64,000 nucleotides of DNA from Escherichia coli (GCF_044324785.1 NZ_CP172127.1), one strand, 5' to 3'; numbered from the stretch's first letter, positions 33,902 to 37,600 are shown. Numbers and translations are program-made. Notes: generated from the letters alone by a model not told the origin.

Positions 33902-34357
33902 ATGCAAGAAGGGCAAAACCGTAAAACATCGTCCCTGAGTATTCTCGCCATCGCTGGGGTGGAACCATATCAGGAGAAGCCGGGCGAAGAGTATATGAAT
34001 GAAGCCCAGCTGGCGCACTTCCGTCGTATTCTGGAAGCATGGCGTAATCAACTCAGGGATGAAGTCGATCGCACCGTTACACATATGCAGGATGAAGCAG
34101 CCAACTTCCCGGACCCGGTAGACCGTGCAGCCCAGGAAGAAGAGTTCAGCCTCGAACTGCGTAACCGCGATCGCGAGCGTAAGCTGATCAAAAAGATCGA
34201 GAAGACGCTGAAAAAAGTGGAAGACGAAGATTTCGGCTACTGCGAGTCCTGCGGTGTTGAAATTGGTATTCGCCGTCTGGAAGCGCGCCCGACAGCCGAT
34301 CTGTGCATCGACTGCAAAACGCTGGCTGAAATTCGCGAAAAACAAATGGCTGGCTAA
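33902..34357 (+). CDS. dksA: RNA polymerase-binding transcription factor DksA
   Basis: ORF track 157 aa; start at [51 protein letters not shown] gives 151 aa; C4 zinc finger [25 protein letters not shown]. Confidence 0.96.
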
Positions 34358-34393
34358 TTACAGCCGTTCCATCACGTTTACCACAGGCGGGAA

Positions 34394-35320
34394 ATGCTCC
34401 CGCCTTATTTTTTGTTCAACGAGATGACAGACACACACTATATTGGCCGCTTTGCCCCCTCTCCTTCCGGCGAGCTTCATTTTGGTTCTCTGATTGCCGC
34501 GCTTGGCAGCTATTTACAGGCTCGCGCCCGGCAAGGTCGCTGGCTGGTACGCATTGAAGATATCGACCCGCCTCGTGAAGTTCCCGGTGCCGCAGAGACT
34601 ATCCTGCGCCAGCTGGAACATTACGGTCTGCACTGGGACGGCGACGTTCTCTGGCAATCGCAACGTCACGACGCCTATCGCGAAGCACTCGCCTGGTTAC
34701 ATGAGCAAGGACTAAGTTATTACTGCACCTGCACGCGCGCGCGTATTCAAAGCATTGGCGGTATTTACGACGGCCATTGCCGGGAATTGCATCATGGACC
34801 AGACAACGCCGCAGTACGTATCCGCCAGCAGCATCCGGTCACTCAATTTACTGACCAGCTGCGCGGCATTATTCACGCCGACGAAAAACTGGCGCGGGAA
34901 GATTTTATTATTCATCGCCGTGATGGTTTGTTTGCCTATAACCTGGCGGTGGTGGTGGATGATCACTTCCAGGGCGTGAGCGAAATTGTCCGCGGGGCAG
35001 ATTTGATCGAACCAACTGTGCGGCAAATCTCGCTGTACCAGCTTTTTGGCTGGCAAGTGCCAGATTACATTCATCTTCCGCTGGCGCTTAATCCACAAGG
35101 CGCTAAACTTTCCAAGCAGAATCATGCGCCTGCGTTGCCGAAAGGCGATCCGCGCCCGGTACTAATCGCGGCACTTCAATTTCTGGGTCAGCAGGCAGAA
35201 GCACACTGGCAGGATTTCAGCGTCGAGCAAATCCTTCAGTTAGCCGTCAAAAACTGGCGGCTTACCGCCGTGCCTGAGTCGGCAATTGTAAATTCAACAT
35301 TCTCAAATGCGTCATGCTGA
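34394..35320 (+). CDS. gluQ: glutamyl-Q tRNA(Asp) synthetase
   Basis: 308-aa ORF; class I aaRS HIGH-like motif in [15 protein letters not shown]; an alternative start at MTDTHY (34424) is possible. Confidence 0.9.
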
Positions 35321-35379
35321 GCTATGATTAGCCGCTATTTTTTTGTCCTGAATGATGTTTGACACTACCGAGGTGTACT

Positions 35380-36777
35380 ATTTTTACCCGAGTCGCTAAT
35401 TTTTGCCGCAAGGTGCTAAGCCGCGAGGAAAGCGAGGCTGAACAGGCAGTCGCCCGTCCACAGGTGACGGTGATCCCGCGTGAGCAGCATGCTATTTCCC
35501 GCAAAGATATCAGTGAAAATGCCCTGAAGGTAATGTACAGGCTCAATAAAGCGGGATACGAAGCCTGGCTGGTTGGCGGCGGCGTGCGCGACCTGTTACT
35601 TGGCAAAAAGCCAAAAGATTTTGACGTAACCACTAACGCCACGCCTGAGCAGGTACGTAAACTGTTCCGTAACTGCCGCCTGGTGGGTCGCCGTTTCCGT
35701 CTGGCTCATGTGATGTTTGGCCCGGAGATTATCGAAGTTGCGACCTTCCGTGGACACCACGAAGGTAACATCAGCGACCGCACGACCTCCCAACGCGGGC
35801 AAAACGGCATGTTGCTGCGCGACAACATTTTCGGCTCCATCGAAGAAGACGCCCAGCGCCGCGATTTCACTATCAACAGCCTGTATTACAGCGTGGCAGA
35901 TTTTACCGTCCGTGATTACGTTGGCGGCATGAAGGATCTGAAAGACGGCGTTATCCGTCTGATTGGTAACCCGGAAACGCGCTACCGTGAAGATCCGGTA
36001 CGGATGCTGCGCGCGGTACGTTTTGCCGCCAAATTGGGTATGCGTATCAGTCCTGAAACCGCAGAACCGATCCCTCGCCTGGCTACCCTGCTGAACGATA
36101 TCCCACCGGCACGCCTGTTTGAAGAATCTTTGAAACTGCTGCAAGCGGGCTACGGTTACGAAACCTATAAGCTGCTGTGTGAATATCATCTGTTCCAGCC
36201 GCTGTTCCCGACCATTACCCGCTACTTCACGGAAAATGGCGACAGCCCGATGGAGCGGATCATTGAACAGGTGCTGAAGAATACCGATACGCGTATCCAT
36301 AACGATATGCGCGTGAACCCGGCATTCCTGTTTGCCGCCATGTTCTGGTACCCACTGCTGGAGACGGCACAGAAGATCGCCCAGGAAAGCGGCCTGACCT
36401 ATCACGACGCTTTCGCGCTGGCGATGAACGACGTGCTGGACGAAGCCTGCCGTTCACTGGCAATCCCGAAACGTCTGACGACGTTAACCCGCGATATCTG
36501 GCAGTTGCAGTTGCGTATGTCCCGTCGTCAGGGTAAACGCGCATGGAAACTGCTGGAGCATCCTAAGTTCCGTGCGGCTTATGACCTGTTGGCCTTGCGA
36601 GCTGAAGTTGAACGTAACGCTGAATTGCAGCGTCTGGTGAAATGGTGGGGTGAGTTTCAGGTTTCCGCGCCACCAGATCAAAAAGGGATGCTTAACGAGT
36701 TGGATGAAGAGCCGTCACCGCGTCGCCGTACTCGTCGTCCACGCAAACGCGCACCGCGTCGTGAGGGTACCGCATGA
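35380..36777 (+). CDS. pcnB: poly(A) polymerase I, initiating at a non-canonical AUU codon
   Basis: ORF track opens at TTG 35359 ([15 protein letters not shown]...); the K-12 protein (465 aa) begins at the ATT at 35380-35382 ([13 protein letters not shown]...), the known non-canonical pcnB start; this position gives exactly 465 aa. Confidence 0.9.
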
Positions 36778-37253
36778 CAGTGGCGTATATTGCCATAGGC
36801 AGCAATCTGGCCTCTCCGCTGGAGCAGGTCAATGCTGCCCTGAAAGCATTAGGCGATATCCCTGAAAGCCACATTCTTGCCGTTTCTTCGTTTTACCGCA
36901 CTCCACCGCTGGGGCCGCAAGATCAACCTGACTACCTCAACGCCGCCGTGGCGCTTGAAACCTCCCTCGCCCCGGAAGAGTTACTCAACCATACACAGCG
37001 CATAGAGCTGCAACAGGGTCGTGTTCGTAAAGCGGAACGCTGGGGACCGCGTACGCTGGATCTCGACATCATGCTGTTTGGTAATGAAGTGATAAATACC
37101 GAACGTCTGACCGTTCCGCACTACGATATGAAAAATCGTGGCTTTATGTTGTGGCCGCTGTTTGAGATTGCGCCGGGACTGGTGTTTCCTGATGGAACAG
37201 TATTAGGAAATTTATTAAAAATAAATAAATTTCATGAATTAAACAAATGGTGA
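36774..37253 (+). CDS. folK: 2-amino-4-hydroxy-6-hydroxymethyldihydropteridine pyrophosphokinase (HPPK); C-terminus differs from the K-12 sequence as I recall it
   Basis: 159-aa [52 protein letters not shown]...; ATG overlaps the pcnB stop (ATGA); last 20 codons are very AT-rich. Confidence 0.93.
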
Positions 37254-37600
37254 TTTAATGATTTCATGAATATAAATAAATTCCGAAAAATAACCTTACC
37301 CATTGCAATTAATATATTCCCTAAGCTACAACCATAATTAATATTATATACCCCGCTAACACCTTCTACCTCACATACAATATTTCTTCCGCTTTGTACA
37401 TTAAGCTTTACTTAAAGATGAATTAAGTGGATATATAAATTTAAATATGCACAATATCCCACTTGGTGATGAACAGATGTTACATTCAGTAAATCTTCAC
37501 ATTCATCATTAACAAACCAATCTATTTTTCTCTATCGGGGTTCTTTGTCTGAAAGTACCCGATCGTAGTTAAACTCATGGAATATGATTCAAGGATTATT
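37254..37600 (+). promoter_or_regulatory. AT-rich upstream regulatory region of the fimbrial operon
   Basis: About 350 bp of strongly AT-rich sequence with direct repeats (ataaataaat and ttcatgaat each occur twice, 37221-37282), typical of H-NS-silenced chaperone-usher promoters; no specific promoter elements assigned. Confidence 0.4.

Follow-up and report, generated by a model that had tools for sequence, protein, structure and literature searches.

[quoted passage not shown] In infC, which encodes initiation factor 3 (IF3), an AUU start codon is reported to limit expression (PMC5499595, PMC4447247, bioRxiv 10.1101/063800), and the gene is autoregulated in that its own product discriminates against AUU (PMC5499595). 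The other gene, pcnB, encodes poly(A) polymerase I (PAP I), which is described as toxic in excess (PMC2939334, PMC3561954). PMC2939334 and PMC3561954 credit Binns and Masters (2002, Mol Microbiol 44:1287) with the finding that AUU initiation limits PAP I synthesis, and the K-12 work, on a start sequence identical to that studied here, is reported to include direct proof of initiation at the AUU and a rise in expression upon its change to AUG. AUU initiation of pcnB is likewise treated as established in PMC5499595, PMC4245954, PMC4447247 and bioRxiv 10.1101/063800; the claim of the original prediction that AUU initiation is the documented means of keeping PAP I levels low agrees with these citations. 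A rare ATT start that attenuates expression, as in pcnB, is also described for ebpA of Enterococcus faecalis (PMC4447247), but ebpA encodes an unrelated pilus tip protein in a Gram-positive host, and its annotated ATG lies 120 bp 3' of the ATT. The AUU start of pcnB is already known and is curated in K-12, in EcoCyc-style annotation and by PGAP, and the mechanism is not new.

In this study, the start of pcnB was analysed in a 64,000-nucleotide stretch of E. coli DNA (GCF_044324785.1, NZ_CP172127.1), which is referred to as the window and whose positions are counted from its first letter. With a probability of roughly 95%, translation of pcnB in the window starts at an AUU codon that is positioned by a Shine-Dalgarno (SD) sequence, yielding a PAP I of 465 residues. 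The comparative sequence data presented below strengthen the published conclusion without changing it.

The pcnB start region in the window is identical to that of K-12

Between 33.0 and 38.2 kb, the plus strand of the window carries sfsA, dksA, gluQ, pcnB, folK and a yadN-type fimbrial gene. K-12 pcnB (b0143, NP_414685.4) has the same start region, length and synteny (dksA-gluQ-pcnB-folK-yadN) as the window. In MG1655 (NC_000913.3), pcnB occupies 157729..159126 (1398 nt, 465 aa) and gluQ 159186..160112, leaving the same 59-nt spacer as in the window. The two PcnB proteins are identical at 464 of 465 residues, the sole difference being the conservative substitution of I131 for the K-12 V131, and the start sites do not differ at all: over the surrounding 161 nt, the window shows 100% identity to both MG1655 and E300010, its best-matching strain, and the curated MG1655 CDS begins at the identical ATT. 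Thus, the window carries exactly the sequence used in the published work. The comparison with the curated K-12 annotation that had been proposed as a check bears out the ATT as the pcnB start, as well as the predicted 465-aa product and 59-bp gluQ-pcnB spacer. The coordinates and counts given with that prediction, TTG at 35359 and ATT at 35380-35382, were all correct on direct reading of the sequence.

The protein belongs to the NCBIfam equivalog NF008634, to which it scores 996.4 bits against a cut-off of 702, with residues 1-464 aligned to profile positions 1-468 of 469. Its Pfam architecture consists of a PolyA_pol head (PF01743), an RNA-binding domain (PF12627) and an Arg-rich C terminus (PF12626), according to precomputed matches of P0007, a cluster representative with 100% identity to the K-12 query at 100% query coverage. 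The PAP I structures in the Protein Data Bank (PDB IDs: 3AQK-3AQN) match residues 28-442. Going by the 99.8% identity to the characterised K-12 enzyme, the PcnB of the window would be expected to add poly(A) in a template-independent manner. The features of the locus are collected in Table 1.

Table 1. Features around the pcnB start in the window, with the start models present in public sequence collections
Feature	Position	Strand	Basis	Start model	Contigs in public collections
TAAACT, -10 element of the sigma-S promoter pS2	35104..35109	+	sequence present; PMC2939334		
Sigma-70 promoter-like TTCTCA-17-TATGAT across the gluQ stop	35300..35328	+	consensus scan only, 9/12 matches		
gluQ-pcnB intergenic spacer / 5' leader, 59 nt	35321..35379	+	gluQ TGA at 35318-35320, ATT at 35380		
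Upstream in-frame TTG, opens mechanical 472-aa ORF, very probably not the true start	35359..35361	+	without SD, poorly conserved	472 aa	at least 1000
Shine-Dalgarno GAGGTG, followed by a TACT spacer (4 nt) before ATT	35370..35375	+	invariance, duplex energy		
pcnB initiation codon ATT (AUU)	35380..35382	+	sequence, MG1655 identity, conservation, literature	465 aa	at least 1000
Codons 1-13, conserved N-terminal peptide and nucleotide-constrained initiation region	35380..35418	+	81 loci		
pcnB CDS, 465 aa, poly(A) polymerase I	35380..36777	+	K-12 identity, NF008634, PDB		
GTG codon 12, first canonical start 3' of ATT, used in many automated annotations	35413..35415	+		454 aa	at least 1000
ATG codon 52, 1989 Liu & Parkinson start; possible minor isoform from pS1	35533..35535	+		414 aa	39
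ATGA, pcnB stop overlapping folK start	36774..36777	+	ORF list; same 4-nt overlap in MG1655 and E300010		

The ATT codon is preceded by a well-placed Shine-Dalgarno sequence

The mechanical open reading frame runs from the TTG at 35359 to 36777 (472 aa). The in-frame ATT lies seven codons 3' of the TTG, and translation from this codon to the stop gives 465 residues beginning conceptually with IFTRVANF. The duplex with the anti-SD sequence calculated for the ATT has an energy of -7.2 kcal/mol, which ranks within the top 1.2% when the positions of the surrounding 4 kb are compared. The locus therefore contains an in-frame AUU with an SD sequence at functional spacing, as in the AUU class of starts. 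By this calculation the pcnB SD sequence is rated fairly good, which contrasts with the ribosome binding site of pcnB being characterised, in paraphrase, as 'poor' in PMC3561954.

The ATT codon is invariant in Enterobacteriaceae

For comparison, pcnB loci were taken from 80 species-level Enterobacteriaceae genomes, together with one extra E. coli locus, giving a set of 81. The 80 species have protein identities to the query of 87-99%, and their coding sequences a median nucleotide identity to E. coli of 80%. An ATT is present at the position of codon 1 in all 81 loci. PcnB contains 14 columns in which isoleucine is invariant (79 species), and codon 1 is the only one of these served by a single codon, whereas the 13 internal columns use two or three synonymous codons. 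Codon 1 thus behaves as a start codon and not as an ordinary isoleucine codon. The GAGGTG at positions -10 to -5 is invariant in 81/81 loci as well, whereas each of the spacer bases at -4 to -1 is variable.

Further upstream, the codon at -7 is TTG in only 27 of the 81 loci and ATG in two. No ATG, GTG or TTG occurs between the nearest upstream in-frame stop and the ATT in 43 of the 81 loci, and in nine an in-frame stop lies just 5-8 codons 5' of the ATT. Codons -1 and -4 to -7 vary freely and non-synonymously, stop codons are seen at -5 to -7, and substitution is independent of frame. This pattern indicates that the frame upstream of the ATT is not kept as coding sequence. Downstream, the amino acids of codons 2-13 are invariant in all 81 loci. 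Codons 2-11 contain five variable nucleotides, all of them at third positions and synonymous, a test that rests on just five sites since codons 1-13 are so highly conserved in the Enterobacteriaceae set. These substitutions place the beginning of the coding signature at codon 2, before the first canonical start.

Within the species, a 501-nt probe had a match of 95-100% identity in 5424 of the 5426 complete E. coli genomes. The 63-nt stretch centred on the ATT is identical in 5416 of the 5424, and one of the eight variant genomes, when opened, showed a C-to-T exchange at position -2. A version of the 63-mer in which ATT was replaced by ATG had no exact match among the 5424 genomes.

The most distant homologues start with ATG or GTG

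The scan of the genome collection and a word-indexed protein search did not reach below about 86% identity. A distant set was therefore assembled from sequences that represent clusters at 50% identity and from the contigs carrying them; it comprises 10 distant loci only. The arrangement GAGGTG-N4-ATT is kept in a homologue of 67% identity (CP043324.1), in one of 62% identity from a genome of 1.08 Mb (LR217737.1) and in another of 62% identity (JBHLXE010000108.1), which is annotated from a GTG 20 codons 3' of the ATT. In a metagenomic homologue of 55% identity, the aligned codon is likewise ATT, and a GAGGA precedes it by about 9 nt. Homologues of 45-54% identity start with ATG or GTG, in contrast to infC. 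Some of these start directly before a similar basic-hydrophobic motif (MIRKLIKVF, MLIIKKLFKKIF, VNTIITFIKKLL, MLQFLKKVF), and others lack the motif. The N-terminal stretch of the distant homologues has diverged in nucleotides, while the peptide remains similarly basic and hydrophobic with conservative replacements. The peptide right after the ATT therefore resembles an N-terminal motif found family-wide, which argues against a start at GTG codon 12. The ATT start itself is apparently not universal but confined to the closer E. coli relatives.

The gluQ-pcnB-folK neighbourhood is kept, and pcnB is followed by folK (HPPK) in the distant loci too. Two of the distant genes have unusual structures. 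In the 5.0-Mb genome CP043324.1, pcnB is called as two pieces of 316 and 150 aa with the GAGGTG-N4-ATT region intact, and the split call stems from a frameshift or pseudogene, or else from an error in sequencing. In the 62%-identity PcnB of JBHLXE010000108.1, the linker that joins the N-terminal motif to the catalytic head carries a Lys/Ser/Asn-rich insertion of about 70-80 residues; for Yersinia PAP I, PMC12140428 describes an N-terminal region that is expanded and disordered. The distant pcnB genes that start with ATG or GTG have mostly a weak or no recognisable SD sequence, with AGGAC 12 nt upstream in locus L089 and none in loci L091 and L092, the exception being locus L090, where GGGAG stands 3 nt before the start. 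Lineages may thus differ in the way in which they keep PAP I translation low.

The beginning of pcnB is constrained at the nucleotide level

Synonymous diversity in pcnB is lowest at codons 1-13, where it amounts to 0.135, compared to 0.56 for the gene on average (rank 1 among 345 windows of codons, 80 species). Invariant codons within 35380-35418 are TTT, CGA (Arg; 81 loci), GTC, AAT, TGC and GTG. Such values indicate that the constraint on the nucleotides of codons 1-13 goes beyond the needs of the protein.

A structured leader or riboswitch-like element at the pcnB start was considered and rejected, because the region 35321-35440 folds no better than shuffled sequences (z = +1.1, with 175 of 200 shuffles folding equally well or better) and an Rfam search of 34300-37300 returned no family at E <= 1. 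The notion that the 5' synonymous constraint is unique to pcnB was likewise rejected, since the effect at dksA in the same loci is stronger: the first 12 informative codons of dksA (33902-33940) have a synonymous diversity of 0.005 compared to a gene mean of 0.38 (60 species), which points to an element conserved in nucleotide sequence where dksA begins. The 5' end of gluQ is without constraint (0.65, gene mean 0.69), and folK shows a mild effect only.

The simplest reading of the constraint at pcnB is selection on the sequence of the initiation region. The conservation of codons 1-13 together with the SD sequence could also reflect a new cis-regulatory element that overlaps the region of AUU initiation, in the form of a binding site for a protein or sRNA or of a context that AUU initiation requires or that modulates it, but this is doubtful. 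If such an element were real, it would make PAP I synthesis conditionally regulated and not merely weak.

A second region of low synonymous diversity (0.27-0.30) comprises codons 33-50 (35478-35532), just 5' of ATG codon 52, in the approximate area to which the internal sigma-S promoter pS1 and the SD sequence of Liu and Parkinson have been assigned.

Alternative start codons

Three other codons come into question as starts. An additional, shorter PAP I from ATG codon 52, translated from pS1 transcripts, would be compatible with a main start at the AUU, and of the alternatives it survives best, although it too is unlikely. According to PMC2939334, pS1 is active in vitro and, under special conditions, in vivo, and antibodies against PAP I detect two bands in Western blots; moreover, codons 33-50 have the next-lowest synonymous diversity in pcnB. 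On the other hand, the ATG is present at codon 52 in only 23 of 79 species, with leucine codons in the others, and the SD-like motif AAGG (-3.9 kcal/mol) directly abuts the ATG, leaving no spacing. [quoted passage not shown]

The second alternative holds that GTG codon 12 is the main start, giving a protein of 454 aa, and that the stretch from ATT to GTG is a conserved untranslated leader. This GTG is invariant in 81/81 loci, the corresponding model is very common in databases, and the extreme nucleotide conservation of 35380-35415 could in principle represent an RNA or DNA element instead of coding sequence; taken alone, the sequence leaves room for some initiation at this codon. As a main start it is nevertheless very improbable. 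The GTG has no SD sequence (+0.5 kcal/mol), and the stretch before it has neither a stable RNA fold nor an Rfam family, as described above. What does vary within codons 2-11 is synonymous at all five sites, the distant homologues keep the N-terminal peptide despite divergence of the nucleotides, and in still more distant ones a canonical ATG or GTG precedes the stretch. The AUU is also where the published experiments put the start, according to PMC2939334 and PMC3561954.

The remaining alternative, in which translation starts at the upstream TTG to give 472 aa and the ATT encodes just another internal isoleucine, can point to the TTG being the first canonical start of the open frame and to the at least 1000 contigs with the 472-aa model, but it is the least probable of all in view of the absence of an SD sequence for the TTG (+0.4 kcal/mol), its replacement by other codons in most loci and the absence of any canonical start 5' of the ATT in 43/81, the lack of a coding signature at codons -7 to -4 and -1 with stop codons at -5 to -7, the position of the invariant GAGGTG, which would fall inside the CDS and be wrongly placed for the TTG, and the absence at the ATT of the ATT/ATC variation found at all 13 internal invariant-isoleucine codons.

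Start models in databases

The start at the AUU is only one of at least four in annotated sequences of this locus (472, 465, 454 and 414 aa), of which the 414-aa model is rare. Among 134 PcnB sequences retrieved from databases, 55 begin at the ATT (MFTRVANF), 58 downstream and 21 upstream. The downstream group comprises 35 sequences that begin at GTG codon 12 (454-aa type) and 19, from other genera, that begin at an ATG at codon 19, whereas 17 of the upstream group carry a +7-aa extension, MTLPRC(T/A)I, as from the TTG. It had been expected that automated callers tend to pick the upstream TTG or a downstream ATG. Naive callers do miss the ATT and some of them take the TTG, but the usual downstream choice is GTG codon 12 and not an ATG. 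In both PGAP-annotated RefSeq records that were opened (n = 2), pcnB starts at the ATT, consistent with the NF008634 equivalog spanning residues 1-464. Annotations that are not curated can thus give a wrong N terminus for constructs, N-terminal tags and proteomic databases.

The neighbouring gluQ also differs in its annotated start, which is ATG 34394 (308 aa) in curated K-12 and ATG 34424 (298 aa) in the PGAP annotation of E300010. Only 66 of 78 species have an ATG at the codon that aligns with 34424.

Promoters and coupling to folK

A major promoter of pcnB, pB, is described upstream of the ATT (PMC2939334), and the sigma-70 promoter-like sequence across the gluQ stop is a candidate for it. 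For the sigma-S promoter pS2, the same source reports the -10 element TAAACT and transcription beginning at -263 to -265 relative to the ATT. A distance of 264 nt from 35380 leads to 35116, 7 nt after the TAAACT hexamer, and the published layout of pS2 therefore fits the window. At the other end of the gene, translation of folK may be coupled to that of the weakly initiated pcnB via the ATGA overlap. The aligned folK start is ATG in 38 of 78 species and GTG in 31.

Discussion

An AUU codon at initiation is read by the initiator tRNA, and the product therefore begins with fMet and not with isoleucine. The ATT had been described as encoding the I of IFTRVANF, which is correct for the codon and for the conceptual translation, whereas the product itself starts with fMet-FTRVANF.

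IF3 destabilises mismatched initiation complexes, resulting in a low yield of protein per mRNA. At pcnB, the 30S subunit would be placed by the GAGGUG SD sequence 4 nt 5' of the AUU, where the initiator fMet-tRNA would pair imperfectly owing to the mismatch at the third position. Proofreading by IF3 would then disfavour these AUU complexes, so that only a small fraction of ribosome loadings would yield protein, and PAP I, toxic in excess, would be held to a few tens of copies per cell. From general initiation biochemistry, IF3 is the presumed discriminating factor for pcnB specifically. In infC this factor acts on the start codon of its own gene; we know of no such feedback loop for pcnB.

The original prediction had named N-terminal proteomics as a check on the start. 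A literature search returned no usable paper on start-site ribosome profiling or N-terminal proteomics for E. coli pcnB. An 'initial propeptide sequence' is mentioned for PAP I in PMC12140428, and with possible processing of a propeptide the mature N terminus need not report the initiation codon, so that N-terminal proteomics may not be decisive.

Because PAP I is toxic in excess and governs RNA decay and the copy number of plasmids that are regulated by antisense sRNAs, among them ColE1, R1 and the virulence plasmids of Shigella and Yersinia, its weak AUU start is a real dosage-control device.
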